Assembly: GCA_905178155.1 (NCBI GenBank)
Contig: CAJINV010000012.1
Location: 1 to 64,000 of the forward strand
Reading direction: 5' to 3'
Length of the DNA stretch: 64,000 bases
DNA from: Amoebophrya sp. A120
Lineage: Eukaryota > Protista > Dinoflagellata
Under the pieces are notes generated by a model, which saw only the letters and a program-made list of their open reading frames with translations, was not told where the DNA came from and made no database searches. Below, piece by piece: positions 2,558 through 43,500 of the stretch; position 1 is the first letter of the stretch; the number at the start of each line of letters is the position of its first letter. A program made the translations under genes and the position numbers.

Positions 2558-4637
2558 CATAAAATCTTTGTCTCTGTTCTGGATGAACCTTGCAGTGTCT
2601 CTTCGGTGCAGTTGCAGAGCGTTTCGGTTGAGTTTTGTAAGAAGCAGTCTGGTGGCGCTGTGTAATTGAAGCTGCTGAAGTTCATCTCTAACTCTACTTA
2701 CGGAAAATTATGCATGAATTCGTTGCAGCATCAACAGCAAGCGTTCATGGATAATTTGTAGCTACTTGTTAAGCAGACACGGGCATCGGGATCGGCATGT
2801 GCTCGACTAAGTATTGTTTTTCTGTCTGGTACTACTGCTAGGGCCAATGCTTCTTCCAAAACTACTTGCTTCATCCATGTTGCACTTCTTGAATACACTT
2901 CTGCAACGCAAAAGCATTGCGGGACGTCCAGGCCCGGGACAAGTGTTGTTTTTCGATTGATACACGACGTGCCGACAGTGCAGACGTACATCAAGGACTC
3001 CCTCTTCTCCTTGGCTCCGATTCCGCCCACGAACGGTACAACCGGAGCAGCAGATGACCCGTTCGTCAACGCAACCACTGGCAGTCGTGATTCCGGCGGC
3101 GGGGAAACCACGCATCGTGCAGGCGAAGACCGTGTCCAAGAGCCGACGTTGGAGGTGAACTTCCTCTACCCTGGGAAGGGTCTGACGCGGTCGCCGTCGC
3201 GGAGGAGGAGGTCCAAGAAAACCGGCAAACTGTCCGGCGAGAAGCGGGTCGAGAAAACGGAACAAGAATTGTAGGAAAAAACGAAAAACTACCTTCATTC
3301 ACAACACACACGCTCGACGAGAACAAACAGTTGATGAAGCAGAAAAAACTACGGAGTGAACAATAAACACAGGAACAAGTACCAAGAGCTTCCTTCTAGC
3401 CTCTCTTCTACACTGCTGCATTCTAGTACAGCAGACGATCGCACATCAGATGCGGATCAGAACCATGGCAACGGGTGCTTAGTGGATGCGGAGAGTGTTG
3501 TGAGGTTCATTTTCCCTCCCCTGGGTAAGTAGACGCAAGCCCTAACCGAAACTGTTAGATTTAGATAGTACTAAGCTACTTTTGATCGTTATTCTACGTC
3601 AGATTCGACGAACATTTTGATGTTCTTTGTTGTCCTTCAAATATTAAACTTTGGAGCATTACACCGCAAAAGCAAATAGTACGAAGCCCGTGTCACCTCA
3701 ACATCACAAGCAATCGCTTCAGTTTCTTATATTTCAACAGCAAGTCGCAACATCATTCAAACGCTTTTGTTTATCTGCATAGCATTGTTTCTCGTTGCAA
3801 ATGAAGCAAGAGAAGTTCGTGTCTTCAAAAATCATTCGGCTCGCATGAGCTAAAGTCCCAGCTTGTTTACAACTTATCAATCTCTGTTATTTCGTTATCG
3901 TTAACGTTTTCGTTTACATTTGAATATATAATTTCACTCACCGCCACCATGTAGTACCATACAGCAAAGTTGGACGCAACAGCAGACGCCGCCTTCGAAG
4001 CAAAAATAGTATTAGCAGTAAGCGAGCACGCATCTATGCAACCGAATCGACGCCCTGTACAGTTCTAGTTGTTGCCACCTTCATACGAAAGCACAAACTT
4101 CCTCTACAACAAGCTGAGCCGGTATGTGCGCGCTCCGTACCGATGCGTCTGTTCTATCTGCGCTCAACTTCAACTTGCTTGACGAGCTCGTGCTCTGTGC
4201 GTTGATGTGTTTGTGATGTCCGCAATATTTTAAATGGAGAGATGGAGTTGGAGAATGGCAAGGAGGCGCAGATGGAGATGGAGAAAGCCACCTCGTATGA
4301 AGCATCAAGTCATCATGATCTAAGACTGAGTCGCTGTATAAAATGCGCATACAGCCTGCATTTTTAAAGAGTGAAAGCGATGAGGAGGAGTTGTTGGTGA
4401 CTGCGTCTCCGAGGGGACAGTAGTGCAGCACCAGGTGGAGAGGCACTGGTGCTGCGTTTCTCTCATTTTTTTTTGGTTTTTTTTAGGGCGACCTCGTCCC
4501 ACCGCATTAAGTATTAACTATAGTTGCATACAAAGGGCGCACCGCTGCAGGGCCGCGACTCGTCAGTCGAGGTCGTCGAAAAATTGCTGCCTTCTTGCGC
4601 AAGTGCACGATGGAAGTCGAGGTACAGACAGATCGTA

Positions 4638-7600
4638 GATTTCTTTTCCAGGGCGGCAGGGACTTTCTACGCCCTCGACCTGGCTTCCGCAGGGCGCGGC
4701 GTAGAAAGTCCCTACCGCCCGGGGAAAGAAATTTCTGCTTTGTGTTGCGCAAAAACAACTTTGGGCGTGGATTTCTTTTCCAGGGCGGCAGGGACTTTCT
4801 ACGCCCTCGACTTGGCTTCCGCAGGGCGCGGCGTAGAAAGTCCCTGCCGGCCGGGGAAAGAAATCTCCGATTTGTGTTGCGCAAAAACAACTTTGGGGCC
4901 GGACTTCTTTTCCATTCTTTTCCACGGTGGCAGGGACTTTCTACGCCCTCGACTTGGCTCCCGCAGGGCGCGGCGTAGAAAGTCCCTACCGCCCGGGGAA
5001 AGAAATCTCCGATCTGTGTTGCGCAAAAACAACTTTGGGGGCGAATTTCTTTTCCAGGGCGGCAGGGACTTTCTACGCCCTCGACTTGGCTCCCGCAGGG
5101 CGCGGCGTAGAAAGTCCCTACCGCCCGGGGAAAGAAATCTCCGATCTGTGTTGCGCAAAAACAACTTTGGGGGCGAATTTCTTTTCCAGGGCGGCAGGGA
5201 CTTTCTACGCCCTCGACTTGGCTCCCGCAGGGCGCGGCGTAGAAAGTCCCTACCGCCCGGGGAAAGAAATCTCCGATCTGTGTTGCGCAAAAACAACTTT
5301 GGGGGCGAATTTCTTTTCCAGGGCGGCAGGGACTTTCTACGCCCTCGACTTGGCTCCCGCAGGGCGCGGCGTAGAAAGTCCCTACCGCCCGGGGAAAGAA
5401 ATCTCCGATCTGTGTTGCGCAAAAACAACTTTGGGGGCGAATTTCTTTTCCAGGGCGGCAGGGACTTTCTACGCCCTCGACTTGGCTCCCGCAGGGCGCG
5501 GCGTAGAAAGTCCCTACCGCCCGGGGAAAGAAATCTCCGATCTGTGTTGCGCAAAAACAACTTTGGGGGCGAATTTCTTTTCCAGGGCGGCAGGGACTTT
5601 CTACGCCCTCGACTTGGCTCCCGCAGGGCGCGGCGTAGAAAGTCCCTACCGCCCGGGGAAAGAAATCTCCGATCTGTGTTGCGCAAAAACAACTTTGGGG
5701 GCGAATTTCTTTTCCAGGGCGGCAGGGACTTTCTACGCCCTCGACTTGGCTCCCGCAGGGCGCGGCGTAGAAAGTCCCTACCGCCCGGGGAAAGAAATCT
5801 CCGATCTGTGTTGCGCAAAAACAACTTTGGGGGCGAATTTCTTTTCCAGGGCGGCAGGGACTTTCTACGCCCTCGACTTGGCTCCCGCAGGGCGCGGCGT
5901 AGAAAGTCCCTACCGCCCGGGGAAAGAAATCTCCGATCTGTGTTGCGCAAAAACAACTTTGGGGGCGAATTTCTTTTCCAGGGCGGCAGGGACTTTCTAC
6001 GCCCTCGACTTGGCTCCCGCAGGGCGCGGCGTAGAAAGTCCCTACCGCCCGGGGAAAGAAATCTCCGATCTGTGTTGCGCAAAAACAACTTTGGGGGCGA
6101 ATTTCTTTTCCAGGGCGGCAGGGACTTTCTACGCCCTCGACTTGGCTCCCGCAGGGCGCGGCGTAGAAAGTCCCTACCGCCCGGGGAAAGAAATCTCCGA
6201 TCTGTGTTGCGCAAAAACAACTTTGGGGGCGAATTTCTTTTCCAGGGCGGCAGGGACTTTCTACGCCCTCGACTTGGCTCCCGCAGGGCGCGGCGTAGAA
6301 AGTCCCTACCGCCCGGGGAAAGAAATCTCCGATCTGTGTTGCGCAAAAACAACTTTGGGGGCGAATTTCTTTTCCAGGGCGGCAGGGACTTTCTACGCCC
6401 TCGACTTGGCTCCCGCAGGGCGCGGCGTAGAAAGTCCCTACCGCCCGGGGAAAGAAATCTCCGATCTGTGTTGCGCAAAAACAACTTTGGGGGCGAATTT
6501 CTTTTCCAGGGCGGCAGGGACTTTCTACGCCCTCGACTTGGCTCCCGCAGGGCGCGGCGTAGAAAGTCCCTACCGCCCGGGGAAAGAAATCTCCGATCTG
6601 TGTTGCGCAAAAACAACTTTGGGGGCGAATTTCTTTTCCAGGGCGGCAGGGACTTTCTACGCCCTCGACTTGGCTCCCGCAGGGCGCGGCGTAGAAAGTC
6701 CCTACCGCCCGGGGAAAGAAATCTCCGATCTGTGTTGCGCAAAAACAACTTTGGGGGCGAATTTCTTTTCCAGGGCGGCAGGGACTTTCTACGCCCTCGA
6801 CTTGGCTCCCGCAGGGCGCGGCGTAGAAAGTCCCTACCGCCCGGGGAAAGAAATCTCCGATCTGTGTTGCGCAAAAACAACTTTGGGGGCGAATTTCTTT
6901 TCCAGGGCGGCAGGGACTTTCTACGCCCTCGACTTGGCTCCCGCAGGGCGCGGCGTAGAAAGTCCCTACCGCCCGGGGAAAGAAATCTCCGATCTGTGTT
7001 GCGCAAAAACAACTTTGGGGGCGAATTTCTTTTCCAGGGCGGCAGGGACTTTCTACGCCCTCGACTTGGCTCCCGCAGGGCGCGGCGTAGAAAGTCCCTA
7101 CCGCCCGGGGAAAGAAATCTCCGATCTGTGTTGCGCAAAAACAACTTTGGGGGCGAATTTCTTTTCCAGGGCGGCAGGGACTTTCTACGCCCTCGACTTG
7201 GCTCCCGCAGGGCGCGGCGTAGAAAGTCCCTACCGCCCGGGGAAAGAAATCTCCGATCTGTGTTGCGCAAAAACAACTTTGGGGGCGAATTTCTTTTCCA
7301 GGGCGGCAGGGACTTTCTACGCCCTCGACTTGGCTCCCGCAGGGCGCGGCGTAGAAAGTCCCTACCGCCCGGGGAAAGAAATCTCCGATCTGTGTTGCGC
7401 AAAAACAACTTTGGGGGCGAATTTCTTTTCCAGGGCGGCAGGGACTTTCTACGCCCTCGACTTGGCTCCCGCAGGGCGCGGCGTAGAAAGTCCCTACCGC
7501 CCGGGGAAAGAAATCTCCGATCTGTGTTGCGCAAAAACAACTTTGGGGGCGAATTTCTTTTCCAGGGCGGCAGGGACTTTCTACGCCCTCGACTTGGCTC

Positions 7601-8663
7601 CCGCAGGGCGCGGCGTAGAAAGTCCCTACCGCCCGGGGAAAGAAATCTCCGATCTGTGTTGCGCAAAAACAACTTTGGGGGCGAATTTCTTTTCCAGGGC
7701 GGCAGGGACTTTCTACGCCCTCGACTTGGCTCCCGCAGGGCGCGGCGTAGAAAGTCCCTACCGCCCGGGGAAAGAAATCTCCGATCTGTGTTGCGCAAAA
7801 ACAACTTTGGGGGCGAATTTCTTTTCCAGGGCGGCAGGGACTTTCTACGCCCTCGACTTGGCTCCCGCAGGGCGCGGCGTAGAAAGTCCCTACCGCCCGG
7901 GGAAAGAAATCTCCGATCTGTGTTGCGCAAAAACAACTTTGGGGGCGAATTTCTTTTCCAGGGCGGCAGGGACTTTCTACGCCCTCGACTTGGGCCCCGC
8001 AGGGCGTGGCGTAGAAAGTCCCTGCCGTCCGGGGAAAGAAATCTCCGATCTGTGTTGCGCAAAAACAACTTGGGGGACGAATTTCTTTTCCAGGGCGGCA
8101 GAAACTTTCTACGCCCTCGACTTGGCTCCCGCAGGGCGCGGCGTAGAAAGTCCCTGCCGCCCGGGGAAAGAAGTCTCCGATCTGTGTTGCACAAAAACAA
8201 ATTTGGGGCCGGACTTCTTTTCCAGGGCGGCAGGGACTTTCTACGCCCTCGACTTGGCTTCCGCAGGGCGCGGCGTAGAAAGCCCCTGCCGCCCGGGGAA
8301 AGAAATCTCCGGTCTGTGTTGCGCAAAAACAAATTTGGGGCCGCACTTCTTTTCCAGGGCGGCAGGGACTTTCTACGCCCTCGACTTGGCTTCCGCAGGG
8401 CGCGGCGTAGAAAGTCCCTACCGCCCGGGGAAAGAAACCGCCGATCTGTGTTGCGCAAAAACAACTTTGGGGCCGGACTTCTTTTCCAGGGTGGTAGGGA
8501 CTTTCTACGCCCTCGACTTGGCTTCCGCAGGGCGCGGCATAGAAAGCCCCTGCCGCCCGGGGAAAGAAATCTTTCTCCGATCTGTGTTAGGCAAAAACAA
8601 CTTTGGGAACGAATTTCTTTCCCAGGGCGGCAGGGACTTTCTACGCCCTCGACCTGGCTCCCC
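4638..8663. repeat. Tandem satellite, 132-bp unit, ~30 copies, each with an internal hairpin
   Basis: Lines recur exactly every 660 bp (5 x 132); unit contains GGCGGCAGGGACTTTCTACGCC ... GGCGTAGAAAGTCCCTACCGCC inverted repeat; central copies identical, flanking copies diverged. Confidence 0.97.
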
Positions 8664-16799: not shown

Positions 16800-17590
16800 T
16801 TTATTTCAAACAAGCGCGGCAACAACGACAAGGCCCGTCGCTTATGGCGAACTCCATCAGCGACCTGGAGGCGCGGCCTGTCTCGCCCCAATTCAGAAGA
16901 GGCGCGAGCCGGCCCGGGAGCTTTTCGGGCCGGCCTCCCTTCTCTGCCCTGGCTGCCGCGCGGCAACGCGGCGGCCGGGCGCTGGGCGTCTCTACACTGA
17001 TGCGGCCCCTTTCGCGGCACCCCCATACGCCCACGGTTACGCGTTCTCCCTGCGTGGAGGGCCGGCCCGCGGCGCGCCCGCGGCTTTCTAGCCGCGCACC
17101 TGTTTGCGCCAGGCTGGTTGCCTGTCAAGGAAGGTGTGGCTGCGCACTACCTCGCCCCGCCAATCCGCGTGCCCCAGGCTCGCGCAGGTCTTGCGTCGGA
17201 TCGAAAAAACGCAGAAGAACTTGCTGCAGTACAAGAAAGACAGGAATTGGAAGCGCGCGCCGGATATTCGCGCAAACTTCTAGCACGCGGTGGACTTGAT
17301 CGGCCACATGATGTCGTTGCTTGGGCGCGCCGACCCGGTTGTAGCCCTGGCTTCTGGCGCCGAACCTTCTTGCGCCGGGCTGCTTGCCGGGGTTTGGTTG
17401 CGCAAGCCCCAGCCCCGCTAGTTTGTGGCGCAGCAAGCTGGGCCGCGCGCGTATTTTCCCCCATTCGCACTCCAGCGAGCGCGCCCGCCGGGTTGTGGTG
17501 CGCAGGCGGGCGCTGTCACGCAAGCAGCAATTGCATGGTTTGGCTGTGCCCAGACCGCCCGCCCGCGATGCCTGGGCAGGAGTGGTCTTC
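16800..17590. mobile_element. GC-rich intergenic block, probable non-autonomous transposon relic
   Basis: Abrupt GC rise, no credible ORF, composition like the interior of the 33452-34491 TIR element; ends not defined. Confidence 0.4.
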
Positions 17591-18163
17591 ATTGTCTGCT
17601 TCTTTTTATCGTGGTATATTCAAATACAAACCACACGTGATCCCTATGTATGAGTCCGAGCGCTCGTCGCAATACCCTCGCCCGGCTTCGTGTCAACGTG
17701 TTCGCTCTCACCGGAAGCGGAAGATAGGCTCTTAAGTGGGTATTTGTATGTGTGTTTGGATGCCGAGGCCTGCTATGATTCATACGACAGATGGTTACGA
17801 AAACGGCTTGATCAAATGAAATTGGATGACGTTCTGGATCGTCTCTCAAGAAAAAGTAGCTTGTCGTTGTCCTTGTCGTCTCATCGGGAAATAAAGAGTG
17901 TGCAGCTGTTTTCTCCTTCGCTCAAGGTTATCGTACTGCCAAATAAAATTTGAGCTTGCTCTCAACGCCCTGAAGTAAAGAACTCACTGACTACCCCAAA
18001 GAGGTTGTCGATTTCCTCACGGCGATCAAATTGCTACGGCGACACATCAAGAATTGGACACTGCTTGCTGCCCGTGCAGCCTGCCTGTATCCTGTTGTTC
18101 CCGTACATATAATTCGTTTGCACAACATAACTCCAATTGTAACTCAGCAAAACCCATACCAAA

Positions 18164-29046: not shown

Positions 29047-31090
29047 TTAGACTGGTGTGGAATGCAAAATCATCATCAAGTAAGTGCATGTAGAAAAGAA
29101 TGCGCGACGGAGATCAAACCGAAGTCTGTTGCTTCTGTGTTGGCGTAGAGGGATGCCGCGCTGGCCCTGACCCGGTACATCGGAAGACTGCTGGACGATT
29201 CGAAGACCCGAAGCGGTGCCATTCGGGAGGCCTCCGCCGCTGCCCGTGCTTGGGTGCTCTTGAACCTGCCGCGCGTCGCGCAGCCGGGTGCTGGTCCTGA
29301 CGCCCGGGGCCTTGCCGCGCGGGCCCCGCTTGATCAGTGGCCCCAGTGTGTCGAAGCGGGTTCTATTGGTGGAGGCGGGATAGAGCTCCGCGCCCTGGCG
29401 GAGGGCCGTCGTTTTTCTCCGTTGTTTTCTTGGGGGGTTGGGCAAAATTATCGGCGGTCCTGCCGGCCCCGCTTCGTGCCTAGCCTTCCGCACCCCCGAA
29501 GTAGGGACGCGAGCGCCCAAAAGTGGCAGCGCCTTCGTGCCGCGCCACCAGTTAGCCGGCACTAATGGCGCCCCCGTCCGCGGCCGTGCGCGACCCACTG
29601 GGCCCCTACGCGTACAAAAAGAAACGCCGGGGCGCGGCGGATGGCCGGCTGGCACATGGCAAGGCAGGCGGGAGGGGAGGAGAGCGGGCGGGGGGAGAGG
29701 GCCCAGCAAATGCCGTCGCTGCATTCTGCGCGCCGCTTTGGCTGTGGGCCGGCGATGCCCACTATTGGGGCTCCGCCGCTTGCGCCGAGCCAGCGAGCAC
29801 CCCAGGCGCGCGCCATTTGCGCCGTGTTTCTATTCCGGCCGGCGGGCCGCCCCTTTGCAGCAAGGCGGAAAAGTACGCGCAAAGATGCCGGCGGTTGGCA
29901 AAATTTTTGCCAGGGCCCGGCGTTGTGTGCGTTTCGGCGCGTATTCTATCTTTGCGCCCGGGGCCCGCGCGTCGGCAGCCTTCAGGGAGTTGGAAGAGCG
30001 CAAGGACTTGGGGGGCCGAATTGGGCCCGATTCGGCCGGGCGGGCGCGTGCCGCCCGGCCGGGCGCATATTGCTGTGGCGCATAGATAGGAGGGGGGCAA
30101 GCCTCTCGCGGGTGGCCGTGCGTTGCTTCGTTCTTTTGCTGGTACGCAGACGCCGCCGCCATTACCCGACGCCGGCCGGCCCCATGCATTGAGCAACCTT
30201 GTGACGCCCGCCCTGCTTGGTGGTTTCCCCAATATGGCGGCGCGGCCGCAGAAAATCGCGGAGGCCGCCCGCGAATTCCGCAGCCCCGACAGCGTATCGC
30301 CCTAGGTGCCCCAATTGGGGCAAGAAGAGAAGAAAGGGGGCAAAAGGTTGAAGGAGAAGGGGCCCAGCGTGCGCCGGGTCAGCATGCACGCCTGCCAGCA
30401 ACCGCCCCCCCGGCCCGGCTGGGCAGGGCTCGGGCTACGCATTCCAGCGGGGGCCCACCGCGGCGCGCGGGCGGCCGTGCGCCGAGAAGCACCAGACGGG
30501 TCTACGAATCAACCCAACCGAAGCGGGGCCGCACAACTCGGAGCGCCCGCGTCCGACCCGCGCCGATGGATGGCGCTACTTACTGCCTGGGCGAAAATAC
30601 GGCCCCGGGGGAATGTTCCAAGATTCCCGGCCCGCGGCCCGGGGCAGTGTGGGCCGCTCGCCGTTGCATTTTCCTGAGAGAGGCCGCAGGCCGAGCCCCC
30701 GCCCGCGCGCCCGCCAGGGTGCCGGCGCCGGTTTGTCTGGGCGGCGCCTCCCAGGGTTTGGCGCAAGATGTTGCTTTCCGAAAACAACAACCCGCCCAGG
30801 GTTGCATCAAAGCGAAAACTTCGCTGTGATGCAACACGGCCGCGGCACCCGACAGGCGCCCTCGTGCCAGTCTGGCGCGAACGGATCGACTTCTTTGCCC
30901 CGACCTGGCGCGGAAGTGGCCGCCATTACCTCCGTGTGCGAACGCTGGGCCGCATGTGCGCCCGCGGCTTTCATTTTCTTACAGAAATTGAGATGCCTCC
31001 GCGCCCGAGCGAAGTTGGCTTGTGGCAACATTATTGGACGACGATGGGATAATTGGTTGCGGAGCCGTGTGCTCGTGTTCAGGTGAAGGC
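29047..31090. mobile_element. GC-rich intergenic block, probable transposon relic
   Basis: Very GC-rich, no credible ORF; left edge TTAGACTGG resembles TTAGACCAG terminus of the 33452 element; right terminus not found. Confidence 0.4.
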
Positions 31091-32277: not shown

Positions 32278-33044
32278 TTTGGAATTGGATCTGTGCCGCG
32301 AAGGCTGTGATGTCGGATAAAAAGCTTAAGTGTGCGTACTCCGCTGCTGCAGGATGATGATCAATTTGATTCTTCATTATTTCTTCGACCTCCGCAGGAT
32401 CATATGGACAGGTTCATTCACAGGTGAGAAAGAACGGAAGTGATGAGCTTGAGCGTTCATCTCGAATTTGAACTTATCTTGGGATCCGAGGTGGTGAAGA
32501 TCTTGATATTAGACCACAAGCACAACAACTGAAGACCAAGATGACTCCAATGAACATTTGGTTTTGGATGAGTGCCAAGTTTCAACAACAACTTCTCCTA
32601 AGGACCTCGACTAAGACCCGACGACCGCCACTGACGCAAAGACTTTGTCAGGAAAAACGGGAAGAAGTGTTCGCTTTTTCGCTGATCTAGAGTAGATCTT
32701 TCTCTTCATTTGCGCACTAGTCATGTAGTTTCGTGCTCTCCTTCCAGTATTTACGGCTTCTACTTCCCTCTATATTTTTCTGTCGTAAAAATATTTTTAC
32801 CGTTCCTGGCTTTGGCAACTCGTCAGACAATCGGTTTTTTGTAGTAAGTAATAACATATCGCTCGCTACTTCCGCTGCGCGAGGACACGGGCCGCCGCGA
32901 GCAGCACTTGAAGAGGGAACAAAGCCAGCTCATAGTAAAACCCAGCTCCTCGTCGACCACATGCCACCTGGCCACATAACTAAGCAGAAGGAGCTCCGCC
33001 ACCTGCAGCTGCAACCCACGCTCACAACTTCCCCAGTAAATAAA

Positions 33045-36000
33045 ATGTCGTCCTCCTCGAGCACGAGTCGTTTTGATAGCGGCGACAAAGCCTGCTCACC
33101 GTGCGCAGCGACCATGGACACAAGAACGACAGGCAGAGTAAACACTACACCCGCCAAACAAACTAGATCAACAACACCAAGAAAAATAAGAAAAGCGCCC
33201 TCAGCTGGTGCAGCTACATCTTCTCCCACTAGTACCCGAAAGAAACTCCTGACGACAGCGGCCGGACTTTTTTTCTCCACCACGGCAGGCACAACCGCCG
33301 CCCCGGCGAAAGCACCTGGTGCGGGTCCAACGGAGGGAATCAACAGCCGCATTCTGATGATTCCAGACATTCACGGCGACTACGAATTGATGCAGCAAGC
33401 GCTGAGCTTCGTCTACCCAATAGACAAAGACCACGATCAGTTGATATTTACTTAGACCAGAAAATCGGAAGAAGTACATACTTTTTCGCGCACCCGCTTG
33501 CATGACGGGCCGCTATCGTTTCGCTTCGGGGGCGGCGGGGTGCCCCGACAGTACACCCGGCCCGAGGGCCTCGCTGCGCCATGCAGCGGCTCGGGCGTTG
33601 TGGCTTGCCAAAGAGAACCGGGGCGGCCTCCCGACCTCGAAGCCCGCCAGGAGCGAGAAACGCCGCCCCACCAAGCGGCCTCCCCGCGAGCCCGTCCCGG
33701 TCGGGCCGGTGCGGCGCCGCCATGTTTTTTGCCGGATGCGCATGGGCCTGCTCGCCGTACCGGAGGGGCCGGCCCTCGAAGCAGTAGGGCGCGCGCCCCT
33801 GAGGTGGGGCCTGCTTCGGCCCCAACAGCAGCCGCCCCACAATTGGGGGGCCGGGAAGGGGGGCCCGGAAGGCGCGCGGGCCCCCCCTTCTGGAGGGGGG
33901 GTAAAAAGGGGGCCGAATTGGCCCAATTCTGCCGCCTTTTTTAGGGGGGGGCAAAAAATGGCCTTCCCCCGCTACTACAGGGGGGGGGCAAAATGGCCCA
34001 GAAGCGGGCACATTTTACCCCCCCTCAAAAAGGGGGGCGAATTGGGCCAATTCGGCCCCCCTTTTCCCCCCCCCTCCGGAAGGGGGAGGCGCGCGTGCCT
34101 CTTGGGGGGCCTGCAGTTCACCCGCCGGCCGGGGCCCCGGAAGGGAAAAGGCGCGCCAGGCCGCGGCCAAAGCAAGAGCTTTTCCGTGCCCGGAAGGGCT
34201 TCGCGTTGGGGCCCCGGGATGCGCGCCGCGTCGGTTGTGTGTCCCCGACGTGGGCCCAGCTCGGGGGCGGGTGGCGGGGTGTTGGCTGCGTGCCGTCGCC
34301 TTCCTATCTACGCCAAGCCGACCCGCCCCGGCCCCGGCCGCGCAGCCGCAATGCCGGGGGCTAATTTTTCCGGGATAAAACAACCCGGAACGCGGTCGCG
34401 CCTTCGCACCCCCCAACCTCATTCAGGCCGCGACCCCCATTGCAACGGGATACGCAAAAAAACATGTACTTCTTCCGATTTTCTGGTCTAATTTACCGGG
34501 GATTTCGTCGACCGCGGACCGCAACCGCGGGAGTGCTACGAATTATCGCAAGTTTTAGCGGATAACTACAACGTAACCAGGCTAACGGGTAACCACGAGT
34601 GGGTCACGATACAGGGGGTCGGGCAGTACTGCACGAGATTTTTTTGTTGTTTTGCTTTATTTAATGGAGGCAACGTAAAACACTGTGATTTGCGTAAATT
34701 GATAAATTTGAATTTCATTCTTGCTACTTCTCGTTCGGGTTTGGCACGACAAATTCATATTGAACTCAGATGTTGATTACAAGCAAACCAATACCAGACA
34801 CGACCCATTTGCCATGTACGTTCCTGAAGAAGATTTGAAGAGCTTTGGAACCTGGCCAGAGAGATATGACAGCCTCAGGTTGGAAATCCTCAAAGTGCAA
34901 ATAATTTGTAATGCAAAAAAACGACTCCAGTTGAAGCGCCATTTGTAGTCGGCGCATGACAAATTTCCTGGGCCCTTAAAGCATGTCTGTCATGCAGGTT
35001 AAGGCAAAGGGCTGCGCTTCTGTCGTGCTAAGCAGCACTCCAATTCTTGACCCCTAGCAGGACAATAGTCGGCCTTTATTGTGTCCTCTGCAAAACAGTC
35101 TTTTTGAGTCGTATTTCATGCATCACAAATCATTTCCAATTTGAGGATTTCCATTCTGAGGCTTTCATAAGAGACAGCACGCTTTTTCAAAGGACGGGCA
35201 TTTCGGCAAAATGATTCGCCGCAAGTTCGATGTGATAGCGGTATAGAATAAAGTTCTGCTTCTAGAACCCTTGTGGTAACTTTTGCTACGCACTTCTCTT
35301 GCTTGGTTAGACTCATGATTACGTTTCTCGCACTACGTTCATCATCTCTGCATCACAAAAATCACGCTGAAAATAAAACACCAGCTTCTCGGCATCGACT
35401 CCGACCCGATGAGCAAAACTCTATTTGTGCACGCCGGGATAAGCATCCGAACGATGCAGCAATGGGGCACCGTCGAGGCAATCAAAAAAGCGGGCCGGGA
35501 GATGCTCCAGAGTGACTACCTGGACACTGTTTTGCTCAACGAAATTTTGCAAACGCGGCATCTCGCGCAAGGCCCGGACAGCCGCGTGTGCATGGAGGTG
35601 AGACAAATTTTGAAGGTTGCGAAGGCGGAAAGGCTTGTCGTTGGGCACACGTATGCATGGCAAATATGTCTGGGTCCTCTGGAAAGAACTTGGGGTTGTG
35701 ATGCTGGTTTGAGAGGAAAGACAGGATCGGCACCTCATGTGGTTGCCAAGTATGACAAATTTTGGCGATGTTGCCACGGTGTTGTCGAATCTGCATGACA
35801 AACTTGGCTTTTGCATGACAAAAAAGTGGGGCTACTTTTGGGGACCCCGCATGACAACCTACGTGAGAGTCAAATGTTAGCGGTGCATGCCAAACCATGA
35901 AAATTTTTCCAGACTACCCAGACATATTTGCAATGCATACCACGCCAACGCCGCTGATCGGTGGGCAGCCGGGGGAACCGATCGTGAAGTACTTCTACAG

Positions 36001-36643
36001 AGCTACTCTTGTCATCATGTTTTTCAAAATTTCTGTCTCAAGTGAGTGACGCACTGCATGACAGAACTGCATTGTATTGCTAATGTTCGCATGACAAAAT
36101 CAAAAATCACTATCAGGTGCAAAGGCCGCTTTATCCTGATGGATGTTGCGATGTCCAGGTGGATGGGCGGCGGCATGCCTATGGAAGCGTCAGGTTTGAA
36201 ATCGACAAAGCTGAAACGATTTGGCATGCATAAAATGCAAGGCATGAAATGCCTGTCTTGCCGGGATGGCAAGTGAGGCCGACTGTCAGCCTGTTTAGGG
36301 TTTGGAATAGAGCTGCTAAAGTAGCATGACAAAAGCAATCGCCTGTGCCCAAACAGAATGACAAATTGGATTCCGGCGCTCGGAAAATTTGTCATGCACC
36401 GCTTATAAATTGGGTTTCCAACTGGTATCGATTTTATGCATTACAAGTTATTTCAACTTTGACGATTTCAATCCTGACGCTTCCATAATGCCCGCAGCTT
36501 TGATCATCGAGACAGATGCGAATACCGGGAAGTTAAGCCGGGTCTTCTACAAAATCAAGGCGGGGGAAGAGCACGATGTGCCGCTGCCAGAAACGTCGCT
36601 GCAAGACACCAAGGATGGCGACGACTTGCGGCAGGAGTTGTAG
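33045..36643 (+). CDS. Shewanella-like protein phosphatase (calcineurin-like metallophosphoesterase)
   Basis: DIHGD, FT|GDFVDRGP, GNHE, FVHAGI, VVGHT|P, DVAMSR motifs in order; 4 TIR elements, GT-AG introns 35241-35384 and 35989-36116, one degenerate intron ~34630-34814; start uncertain (32961 possible). Confidence 0.85.
33452..34491. mobile_element. 1040-bp GC-rich TIR element inside the phosphatase gene
   Basis: 28-bp perfect TIR TTAGACCAGAAAATCGGAAGAAGTACAT / ATGTACTTCTTCCGATTTTCTGGTCTAA; DR TTTAC/TTTAC. Confidence 0.93.
34865..35169. mobile_element. Introner family C
   Basis: TATGACAGCCTCAGGTTGGAAATCCTCAAA...TTTGAGGATTTCCATTCTGAGGCTTTCATA; DR AGAGA/AGAGA. Confidence 0.92.
35652..35939. 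mobile_element. Introner family B-like
   Basis: TATGCATGGCAAATATGTCTGGG...CCCAGACATATTTGCAATGCATA; DR ACACG/CCACG. Confidence 0.9.
36180..36487. mobile_element. Introner family C (reverse orientation)
   Basis: TATGGAAGCGTCAGGTTTGAAATCG...CGATTTCAATCCTGACGCTTCCATA; DR ATGCC/ATGCC. Confidence 0.93.
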
Positions 36644-37504
36644 TCGATGTAGTCTGCAAGGCAGTTTGTTTTCCTGTCTGACTTCCTTCAACAGGCACAT
36701 CTTCATACCCAAAGTAAATGCTTAATACACTAGTTTAGCAACGAACCTGCATGACATGGAAAGTGAATACCCACTTTGCAACATGATGCTCATTTTCGAT
36801 GTTGAGTAGAGATCCCCACAGCATACCTCGACATAGCAAAGCTGCCCGTGCAATGTCAGGGCAAATTTTCTAAAACGTCGTGGTCACGATAACTACTTAC
36901 ATTTTTTTAAGGCAACCTACAGACATCTGAAACTTGTCTTGACGTTTCCTAGAATTTTTCCAGACGCATCTCGGTCATGCACCGCCAACAGGCTACCAGG
37001 TTGACAGCTAATAGATACTACTTTGATTTTTGAACTGGGACAAGTCAGACTTGTTTATCAAAATCGCATGTGAGGCTTGAAGTTGAAGACAACCAATACG
37101 AACGCAACTGAATGAGAAAGCGTAGAAAACGAAAAGCGGCAATTGCCTAGCAGAGCGCTTGACATTTGCTCTATTCCGGCGAACAAATTGCTTTCTCATC
37201 TGCGAGGGCACTAATTGCATCAGCATAGCGACCCCATTTTTTTCCCTCAGTGCTGCTGCTGGTGTTGAGTTTTTTCCGCGTAATATGAAACGGCACTTGT
37301 GCCCACAGCTCGTACATGTTTTAGCTTGTATCCTACGAGCGCAGGGTGCCAGTAGCTCGGCTAAAAGCACCACGCGAACTATCAGTAAGTGTAAAGCTAA
37401 GGACGTAGCCGCAGAACAATAAACGCTAGTAACACGACAGAGGCAGAGCCACTAGCTTCATCTATTCCAATAGATACGCATTAAAAGGAGTTCCTATCCA
37501 CTTC

Positions 37505-40559: not shown

Positions 40560-43500
40560 TGGAACAGGCTTGGGGCGGCCTTTGCTACTTTTCTAGGCCC
40601 AAGCCCTGGCGTCTCGCTTTCTCTAGCCAGGTGGCGGAGTCGGAAAGGAAACGCTGGCACTGGGCCCGGTTCCGTGCGAAATGCGCCCCATATTATTGGA
40701 AGCCGCACGGAAAGGGCGCCCATTGGATTGGACCGGGCTGCGTGTGTGTGGATGGTGCCGGATTGGGCCGGCACGCTGCCCGCTGCCTGGGTGCGTCGCT
40801 CTCCAGCTTCGGGGCCGCGGCCAAAACATTTGCGCCCCGGCTTGGCTGCTCGGCGACCTTAGCAAACCAATCCGGCCGGGCTGAAGTTTGTCGGAAGGCT
40901 GGAGCCTGCGGCCCAGATTTTTCATCGGCAGGCATGGCATTTGGGGCGGACTGGGCCGCGTGAACGGTCAGCGAGCAGGCAACCCGGCGCAGGCCGGGCC
41001 AGTGTGGGCTCTATCTTCGGAGGCGTGGCACTTGGCCGCCTCAAGCGACGCCGCCCGGGCGGCCCAGTGCGTGGCTGCCTGTGGTCGGAAGCCACGCGCC
41101 AAGGCGTTTGCTTTGCTGGCTTGGTGGCCAGCTCCGAAGAAACGCCGCCCCCGCCCGCCTGTATCACAAGGAGCCAGGGCGGAGAGAGGACGGCGACCCC
41201 GCCCGGTCTTGTGTGCTTTCTTTTGGCCCGCCGCCCGGGCCCAGTGGCTTGGGTGAGGCCCGGCCCGGCGCCGGGCCGCGCCTGTGTTCCTTCGGCCCGC
41301 CCATCCCCGCCCGCGAACGGAGGGGCGCCCGAAAAGGCGCGCGCCGTTCGTTCTCGGGCGCGCGTGCGCCCCACATCATAATGTAAGCGCAGGACGCGTC
41401 GCTGTCGGTTTCTCCTTTCAGGTTGCGGCTATTTTCACCGGGCGCCGGCCCTATCGCGCTTTATTTTGCATTTGATAGCGGTCGCGCGAGGCCAGTTTGC
41501 AGCGCTTACAGGTGGGGCATCGTAAAGATGTATGAGCTTGGCGGCTGTGGGCCATCGAGCATACCGCTAAGCGTCTGCCCGAGCGACGACAGCAAGCGGA
41601 GGGGCGGGGGACCGAGGGCGCGCCGGGCCCCCAATGGCCGCGCGCGCCGGCAGTATCTGCCTGGGATCAGGCAGCCGGCCCGAGGCATTTTCCGCTAGTA
41701 AAATTTTTTTAAAATGTCACTAATTCCGGGAATCGCGGGCCGGCTGGCTGGGTGCGGCACCCTTTGGGCACGCGCCGCATTCGGGGAGGGGGGCGCGGCA
41801 TAGTGTGGCGCCCCCGCTTTTTGTTTTCCCGGGTCGGTGCCGTAAGCTTCCGGGCCGTCTCCCCTGGTTGTGTGCTCTCCCCCGTCCTCTTGGGGATGGG
41901 GGCCGCTTATCGTTGGGCCTTTTCGCGCGCGCGGCGCCTTTGCTTTTGGTGGTGGCCTGCCCTCGGGCGCTCTTTTCCCTTACCTCAGGGAATGCCTCGG
42001 GTCGGGCCCTTGCCCGGGCCTTCGGTTTTTCTTTGTCCGGTATCTTTGCAAGGGAGGGGGGTCCTGTGGTGTGGTTTGGCACACAGGGGCTGCTCCTCGT
42101 GGCCATGGCTCAAATCCACCGGGGCCCGGCGCCTTTGCATTTATGGGGGGCAGCGCGCAGCGGGCCCGGCTCTGGAAATCAGGCAGGCGCGAGGCCGGGG
42201 CTTTTTGGTCTTTCAAACACCACCCCGATCCCGGGCGGCTAATGAAGAGGGTAATCCCGGCGGTAATTTCCGGGGTTAATCTGACCACAACGAAATCGGG
42301 AAGGTTTCGTTGGTTTTGAAATTAGACCAAAAATTAGACTACAGATTAGACTATAAATTAGACCACAAATTACCCCAAAAACCCAAGGAATTAACCTGCC
42401 CCCGGGGGGCAGTCACTCCGCCAGAGCATTGGGTTTTCAGTTGGCGCCATTTGCCACCACTTGTCCTGCTTTTTCTCGGCAGGCCGCCCGCCCGCAGTTC
42501 CCGCCCGCCCGTGGCCTTTGCGTCTTTGAATGGATTCCCCCCGACCGGTGCCTTTCCCAATTTGCCCCGAAGATTGAAGGGGTGGCGCTCTGGAAACCCA
42601 CGAACAACAGGCCCGCCGGGGTCGCGTTCCGGCCTCCGTTGTGATTTGGTGGAGGCCCCCCGCGCGCAGGCTTCGCAGGCTCCTGGGCCTTTCTTCGGTG
42701 CCGGGGCACCCTGTGGCGCCTTTCCCGGCGCGCGCCCGCCTCCCCTTTAGGGGGGCGCGGGGGGGGTGCCTGGAGGGCGGCGCCCGCGATGGCTATGCGC
42801 CCCCGGAAGTATGGTGGCACCCCCGGCGCGTTTTCTAGTCGGGCCCCTCTTGCGCCTGCCCTCCTTCGCTTTGGGGATTAGCCAAACTTCAGCCAGGAAT
42901 TAACGAAATAGCTTGCCACGGGCCGGCTGCCTGACTGGGATGCTTTTTGCCCGCGGGCCGTTTTGTGGGCCCGCCGGGGGCGCGCCAGGCAGCGAGGCAG
43001 CCCCCCCCTGTCTTGTCCGCGCCGGGCGGGCGGGCCCCTGGCTGCCCCCGGTGAGCCGCATACGCCTGTCCCCTTGTGCAAACCATTGGGCGCCCGAGGG
43101 TCGGTGAGCGCCTGGCGCGGCCTGTTGGTGCAATGTGTGCGCAGCTGCCATGCGCAGAGGCGGCGCGCGGGCCCGGGCAAACGGTCCGCGGCCCGGTGGA
43201 TGATCTGGGGCGGGCGTTTCCGCAATATTGACGCATGCACCGTCGGCGCCCGCCAGGCAGCGTTGTTGTCGACCTACCTTCATCCCGCTCCTGCGTGTAG
43301 GAGAGGTTTTCCGAATGGAGAGTGTTCCGGGGTTTGCGAGCAGGGGAACAAACTTCGGGTGATTGAGTGAAGGTTTTTTTTGAAGTGAGAGATAGTGGAA
43401 GGGAGCAGCGTTTTCTTTGTTCTATTATTCTAGCAAAAGCGCTAATCGCGCACTCTCAAATGCGAATCGAGTCGGAGTCGCTCTTGCCGCCGATTCCTGG

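Follow-up and report, generated by a model that had tools for sequence, protein, structure and literature searches.

The locus and its host gene

The window is the whole 64,000-bp stretch of DNA analysed here, taken from a contig of the Amoebophrya sp. A120 assembly. Amoebophrya is a marine parasite. The window carries, on its forward strand, a metallophosphatase gene that is interrupted by canonical GT-AG introns, by short TAT..ATA introners, and by one GC-rich element of 1,040 bp. The parts of the gene other than this element are as follows.

32961 to 33451, + strand: metallophosphatase gene, coding portion of exon 1, with the start as in protein P0001; carries the DIHGD motif and ends in LIFT
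34497 to 34625, + strand: exon 2, following the repeat; carries the GDFVDRG and GNHE motifs
34626 to 34797, + strand: canonical GT-AG intron, 172 nt, from transcript contigs
34865 to 35169, no strand assigned: TAT..ATA introner with the repeat AGAGA; left out of the contigs that skip the 1,040-bp element
35240 to 35384, + strand: canonical GT-AG intron of 144 nt, with a slide of 1 nt, from transcript contigs
35652 to 35939, no strand assigned: TAT..ATA introner in the GHT motif with the mismatched repeat ACACG / CCACG; left out of the contigs that skip the 1,040-bp element
35989 to 36116, + strand: canonical GT-AG intron, 128 nt, with a retained form at low depth in run X3
36180 to 36487, no strand assigned: TAT..ATA introner with the repeat ATGCC; left out of the contigs that skip the 1,040-bp element
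36488 to 37199, + strand: last exon, with the stop at 36641-36643; non-templated poly(A) follows 37199 in X3

Transcript contigs of the gene start at 32651-32835. A search with exon 5 returned seven proteins among 142 candidates. Protein P0001 (source name Amoebophrya sp. A120, GSA120T00006747001.1) is identical to the spliced frame in all of its 425 aa, and the public gene model therefore already counts the element as an intron. This model is the product of a transcript-based pipeline, according to the available text of the genome paper (PMC7789003), so P0001 is likely not independent of the X3 and X4 contigs described below.

P0001 is a calcineurin-like metallophosphoesterase (Pfam PF00149, E 3e-14). 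The motifs of PPP-type metallophosphatases are given as GDXHG and GDXXDRG together with GNH(E/D) in the portion consulted of PMC535813. P0001 has PDIHG (P for G), GDFVDRG, and GNHE. Judged from its sequence, the host gene is a PPP-type metallophosphatase. Over residues 130-400, the orthologues from A25 (P0005) and from a transcriptome (P0004) are 65% and 63% identical, respectively, and all motifs are present in them.

The initial annotation placed an insertion between LIFT and GDFVDRGP in an otherwise intact gene. Both statements hold, since the element lies at this position and the remaining 425 codons are open. The location just before GDXXDRG is not special, because another motif of the gene, GHT, is interrupted by a TAT introner. 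In this introner (35652-35939), the transcript retains the first base of the left repeat copy, ACACG, rather than that of the right copy, CCACG, which puts the 5' cut after repeat position 1. Mismatched repeats like these could map cut sites genome-wide. The GT-AG intron at 35989-36116 carries two GCATGAC motifs, which are typical of TAT introners.

Anatomy of the element

The element and its parts are arranged as follows.

33447 to 33451, + strand: left direct repeat TTTAC, likely a target-site duplication; the mRNA keeps one copy
33452 to 34491, no strand assigned: GC-rich, non-autonomous element bearing terminal inverted repeats (TIRs), 1,040 bp, absent from transcript contigs
33452 to 33479, + strand: left perfect TIR, 28 bp, with an imperfect extension to 33513
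33453 to 33455, + strand: TAG, in frame when the element is retained, within the left TIR
33454 to 34488, + strand: stop-free frame of 345 codons across the element, without a family match, likely not a gene
33873 to 34095, no strand assigned: imperfect internal palindrome with 83-nt arms that are 81% complementary
34464 to 34491, - strand: right perfect TIR, 28 bp, with an imperfect extension to 34430
34492 to 34496, + strand: right direct repeat TTTAC

The GC content of the element is 0.68, compared with about 0.45-0.5 in the flanks. Its TIRs are perfect over exactly 28 bp and 81% complementary out to 62 nt. For the TTTAC pair, the probability that two 5-mers of the window are equal is 0.0012. 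Because an A precedes both copies of TTTAC, the junction slides over 6 nt. A duplication of 6 bp was considered and dropped, as it would require asymmetric ends. The ends of the element are symmetric, and the duplication is therefore of 5 bp.

The element is predicted to be highly structured. The palindrome arms lie at 33873-33955 and 34013-34095, and the fold of 33865-34105 has an energy of -197 kcal/mol (z -13.4), with none of 200 shuffles as good. The terminal arms are paired in both the MFE and the centroid structures. The predicted energy of the arm duplex (30 nt) is -46 kcal/mol, compared with -40 to -43 kcal/mol in the three TAT introners of the gene.

A scan of the window for TIRs flanked by an exact 5-bp repeat gave 21 rows, of which 16 are TAT..ATA elements of 109-311 bp and one is the TTA..TAA element of 1,040 bp. 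The other four were left out as internal or low-complexity. GCATGAC occurs once in the element, compared with zero to three times in each short TAT element. The description in the initial annotation is borne out by these results. It had reported a GC-rich transposon of about 1 kb at 33447-34496 (a span that includes both direct repeats), a perfect 28-bp TIR, a perfect TTTAC duplication, and a large palindrome at about 33880-34090. It had also noted TTA...TAA ends unlike the usual TAT...ATA, which are found in this element only among the rows kept, a length more than three times that of the others (1,040/311 = 3.3), the near-absence of the motif array, and a 5-bp direct-repeat rule in common with the other elements, here followed exactly on both sides.

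The 345-codon frame was tried as a gene and dropped. Frames of at least 340 codons occurred in 30 of 2000 shuffles, Pfam gave no match, and the best Atlas score was 0.82 with low recognition. The open frame, Pfam, and Atlas revealed no transposase coding in the element. Rfam covariance models gave three weak hairpin matches to the element, all far under the gathering score. With its TIR, its target-site duplication, and no transposase, the element has the features of a non-autonomous TIR DNA transposon.

Absence of the element from transcripts

Four runs were placed on 32600-37400. The informative runs are X3 and X4 (2/2), and the raw-read RNA runs X9 and X10 contributed no reads. X3 and X4 represent one sample in the form of contigs, and their RNA nature is a guess. 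Word shares were 0.88 for X1, 0.87 for X2, and 0.37-0.44 for X3-X6, compared with an exon share of 0.41. These were not counted as independent support.

X3 and X4 each have one long contig in which 33445 is joined to 34491. The skipped 1,045 nt (33446-34490) correspond to the element plus one repeat copy, at a depth of 49 in X3 and 17 in X4. Over the listed exon pieces, the contigs show no differences from the window. The same contigs also drop all three GT-AG introns and all three TAT introners. The X3 contig ends with ten A's that are foreign to the window. Since introns are dropped and the poly(A) end is non-templated, the X3 contig is mRNA-derived. Depth inside the element is 0 in all five wholly internal bins, in X3 and X4 alike. 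No contig across an exon-element boundary, as expected of an unspliced precursor, is found among the pieces listed for the two runs.

The initial annotation had suggested that the element behaves as an intron and had predicted the junction. The same junction is found in the X3 and X4 contigs and in P0001. None of the seven possible cut placements gives the GT-AG, GC-AG, or AT-AC ends expected of a U2 or U12 intron. Stepwise removal via nested GT-AG introns was also considered and dropped, because GT is missing from all of the possible 5' boundaries. Upon retention of the element, the TAG comes directly after LIFT and before GDFVDRG. Taken as a whole, the element is very likely a true intron, and it is likely spliced out of the phosphatase transcript.

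The same contigs would be obtained if the cells from which the RNA was made carried an empty allele, the inserted allele being a knock-out that is never spliced. This explanation fits the zero interior depth seen in X3 as well as X4 and the absence of boundary-spanning contigs among the listed pieces, and a perfect TIR and repeat are compatible with a recent insertion. However, the exons are no different from those of the window, and the contig omits three further repeat-flanked elements in like manner. Furthermore, the insertion is present in the assembly, which means that a null-allele sweep between cultures is needed, and the sub-terminal arms are already 19% different. An empty allele is improbable on these grounds.

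Reverse transcriptase can also produce an artefactual junction by slipping at a hairpin between direct repeats. Introns mimicked in this manner are called falsitrons (Schulz et al. 2021). The substrate described in the accessible text is a hairpin with short direct repeats, which appears "spliced" in cDNA; skipped reads make up as much as 70% in cDNA but are absent from direct RNA (PMC8240250). The element resembles falsitrons in this respect, and its predicted folds are very strongly structured. However, the functional exon of falsitrons is the retained form, whereas retention of the element kills the frame. Artefacts leave reads of the retained form, but the interior depth is 0. Retention would truncate the protein before GDFVDRG, while the joined frame is open and conserved. 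Slippage would also make artefacts of all four non-canonical introns in the gene. Given that the interior has no depth and that the open frame is conserved, such an artefact is unlikely here. All of the junction evidence is cDNA-derived. The RT-PCR across the junction that was proposed in the initial annotation is not decisive, because slippage yields the same junction.

Ciliate internal eliminated sequences are removed by excision at the DNA level. By analogy, the element might be excised from the DNA in a transcriptionally active stage, with one repeat copy left behind. A one-copy product is that of precise transposon excision, and there is no precursor RNA among the listed pieces. On the other hand, the genome paper, in the part available, mentions no second genome form, and its authors found no transposase in A120 (PMC7789003). 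Excision from the DNA is scarcely credible, and we favor removal of the element from the RNA.

Other copies and mobility

Metagenome contigs were scanned with 20 nt of the TIR, and one locus, L001, was found. The same scan of viral contigs gave no matches. In L001, a sister copy is represented by its left 246 nt, which run to the contig end. The two copies are identical at 219 of 246 positions (89%), including the first 29 nt. Upstream of the sister copy, L001 carries three TAT elements resembling those of the window, and the contig is therefore Amoebophrya-like. A duplicate with 78% identity between its units (2892-3215 and 3655-4000) harbours the copy, directly after GTAAG, in the second unit only. 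The other unit runs on without an insert and represents an empty paralogous site. Since the second copy sits at a site with an empty paralogue, sequence comparison supports the view that the element belongs to a mobile family. The insertion site in L001 looks non-coding. Four of the ten gaps between the duplicate units are not multiples of three, and open frames on the + strand of that unit that end ahead of the insertion have at most 63 codons. The TTA-ended family occurs both in an exon, that of the phosphatase gene, and at this apparently non-coding site.

Loose ends of X3 and X4 at window positions 34457-34492 belong to a contig that shares the right-hand 35 nt of the element but differs from it in interior and flank. 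This contig represents a further sister copy, possibly an internal-deletion derivative, that is not or not fully removed there. Its interior is C-rich and resembles 34049-34075 by eye. L001 and the loose-end contig are the other copies seen, and intron status is seen in neither.

The insertion had been called young and had been regarded as a link between the intergenic GC-rich transposons and the introners. Neither view is sustained. Nothing dates the element as young, and the sole other alignable copy is 11% diverged. Within the window, the best match to the intergenic GC-rich elements is 28 nt long (E 0.005). Kinship with the GC-rich segments at 16.8-17.6, 29.1-31.0, and 40.6-43.4 kb was dropped, as the matches are of 14-30 nt only. 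One shared stretch is a 28-nt palindromic motif at 30010-30038.

Several other repeats lie in the window. GC-rich DNA (0.66-0.70) in which no terminal inverted repeat was found occupies 29100-30950 and 16800-17600. A GC-rich element with a 21-bp TIR (TCA ends) and the 6-bp repeat CTGGGA is located at 41667-42934, nested in GC-rich DNA at 40600-43350. Its AT-rich core (42322-42370) has repeated TTAGAC, which is like the start of the TIR studied here, perhaps by chance. The stretch 4634-8662 is a tandem array in which a unit of 132 bp recurs about 30 times, with about 97% similarity and a GC content of 0.58. A nested palindromic element with 29-bp arms is found at 1388-1575.

Comparison with known introns and transposons

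Non-canonical introns account for more than 60% of the introns of Amoebophrya A25 and A120. They have inverted repeats of 8-20 nt and direct repeats of 3-5 nt, for which a hairpin model was proposed (Farhat et al. 2021, PMC7789003; this and the following statements follow the accessible text). The end motif is TTA plus two purines in A25 and TAT in A120. The introns analysed were 40-1,000 nt long, with a mean of 240 nt in A120 (PMC7789003).

The element resembles these introner elements in many respects. It comes from an organism of the same source name, lacks GT-AG ends, has TIRs and a short boundary repeat within the 3-5-nt range, is predicted to form a hairpin joining the exons, encodes no transposase, and belongs to a repeated family. 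Its contig junction (in both informative runs, from one sample), non-GT-AG sites, inverted repeat, and TTTAC repeat are those of an introner element. However, the intron of 1,045 nt lies just beyond the published 40-1,000-nt range, the perfect TIR is 28 nt long compared with 8-20 nt, and the GC content is 68%. The end motif is also different, in that the A25 type, TTA plus two purines, is found in a gene of A120, the strain with the reported TAT motif (PMC7789003). The ends read TTA-G-A, which fits the A25 motif, and two purines are expected by chance in one case out of four. Membership in the TAT-type introner families of A120 was dropped, since the element starts with TTA and a BLAST search against the 16 TAT elements of the window gave no similarity.

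Long introners have been reported in A120. In the consulted parts of Gozashti et al. (2025), at least three of 58 introner families in A120 have TIR structure and listed lengths above 1 kb (PMC12130899, supplementary file 8). One of these, fam103, is about 1.19 kb long and has 27 copies, 24 of them with non-canonical 5' ends; fam135 and fam86 also exceed 1 kb. Another family, fam38, is 0.81 kb long with a 5-bp duplication and TA ends. The element is similar to the kilobase families in its TIR structure, its length above 1 kb, and its occurrence as an A120 introner. By table description, it is possibly fam74 (5-bp duplication, alignment span of about 1.06 kb, 49 copies) or fam169 (about 1.03 kb). 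The start of the TIR was not found in 13 of the 14 supplementary files, a result of little weight because the tables carry no element sequences. The gene locus number was not found in any of the 14 (PMC12130899).

The element very likely belongs to the introner kind known from Amoebophrya, as a long and GC-rich member with TTA ends that stands outside the TAT families. Its uniqueness was overstated in the initial annotation, because the accessible parts of two papers already describe the class, ends of the TTA type (A25), and lengths in the kilobase range (A120) (PMC7789003, PMC12130899). It does not represent a new class, as the deposited gene model already implies an intron.

Similar introns are seen in euglenids. 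Nonconventional introns of this lineage, as far as the available text describes them, have non-canonical ends, TIRs whose pairing draws the two ends together, and repeats like target-site duplications, reach thousands of nucleotides, and are of likely MITE origin (PMC11282704). However, this is another lineage, and the CAG/CTG sub-terminal consensus of its introns is not seen in the element. MITEs and other non-autonomous class II TIR transposons share with the element a TIR, a target duplication, no coding capacity, dispersed copies, and an empty paralogous site. Unlike them, the element is long for a MITE and is removed from transcripts.

A proposed route of removal

In our main reading, to which we give a probability of about 0.65, a cut-and-paste-type insert is spliced at the base of a stem formed by its own ends. 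A transposon would have inserted with a 5-bp target duplication, moved by a transposase acting in trans. The anatomy of the locus is that of such an insertion, and the second copy supports mobility. In the pre-mRNA, the terminal arms of 28-62 nt are predicted to pair. Such pairing would hide the 1-kb interior, making the length and content of the insert irrelevant. Cutting and joining would then occur within the repeats, leaving one copy. This product is present in the contigs, and the exact bonds are ambiguous within the 6-nt slide. If the cut is inside the repeats, small shifts of the cut would be harmless. Removal would yield the intact enzyme of 425 aa.

The removing machine is likely a spliceosome without U1, in which the stem would replace recognition of GT and AG. 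U1 snRNA was undetected in Amoebophrya, according to the accessible text of the genome paper (PMC7789003). Euglenid nonconventional introns leave as full-length circles, which suggests an endonuclease-ligase route (PMC11282704, available part). By analogy, a protein endonuclease-ligase might act in Amoebophrya, and we lean only slightly toward the spliceosome.

Removal may instead be real but guided by short ends, a T-rich start and an A-rich end, via a modified spliceosome, with the stem as a relic of transposition. TTA..TAA and TAT..ATA both begin with T and finish with A. In the text available, the published inverted-repeat motifs are triplets that differ between strains, with TTA for A25 and TAT for A120 (PMC7789003), and the TCA-ended TIR element with the 6-bp repeat (41667-42934) is outside any gene seen. 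However, the ends of the element match those of the TAT families only in the first and last base, yet all four non-canonical introns follow the same rule. The A120 introners listed in the parts of PMC12130899 consulted also include the Mutator-like fam65, which has GG/CC ends and repeats of 8-9 bp. Guidance by short ends is unlikely, and recognition of the stem is our preferred reading. The four non-canonical introns of the phosphatase gene have two end types, lengths of 293-1,045 nt, and GC contents of 44-68%, and they obey one rule in one transcript. Because introns so dissimilar behave alike, structure is favored over sequence. The loose-end sister copy left in place in the RNA-type contigs, junction evidence of cDNA origin throughout, and the lack of a precursor among the listed pieces count against this reading.

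Implications for Amoebophrya introns

The removal of the tens of thousands of non-canonical introns of Amoebophrya is an open question, and the published hairpin model came without an experiment, as far as the text consulted goes. In a literature search, with subscription journals mostly outside its scope, neither this locus nor a TTA-ended family of A120 was treated in any paper, and no experiments on the removal mechanism came up. The phosphatase locus brings together in one conserved gene an outlier, with other ends, three times the length, and 68% GC, and three ordinary TAT introners, all under the same removal rule. Failed removal of the outlier is penalised by an immediate stop. The locus thus offers a ready substrate for testing whether removal requires nothing more than paired ends and a 5-bp repeat.

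We tentatively suggest, at somewhat less than even odds, that A120 may remove any insert with pairing ends and a short target duplication, whatever its family, ends, length, or GC content. The TTA-ended family would then be a transposon turning into introns. If this structure-only rule is true, transposon insertions would be harmless even in an active-site codon.
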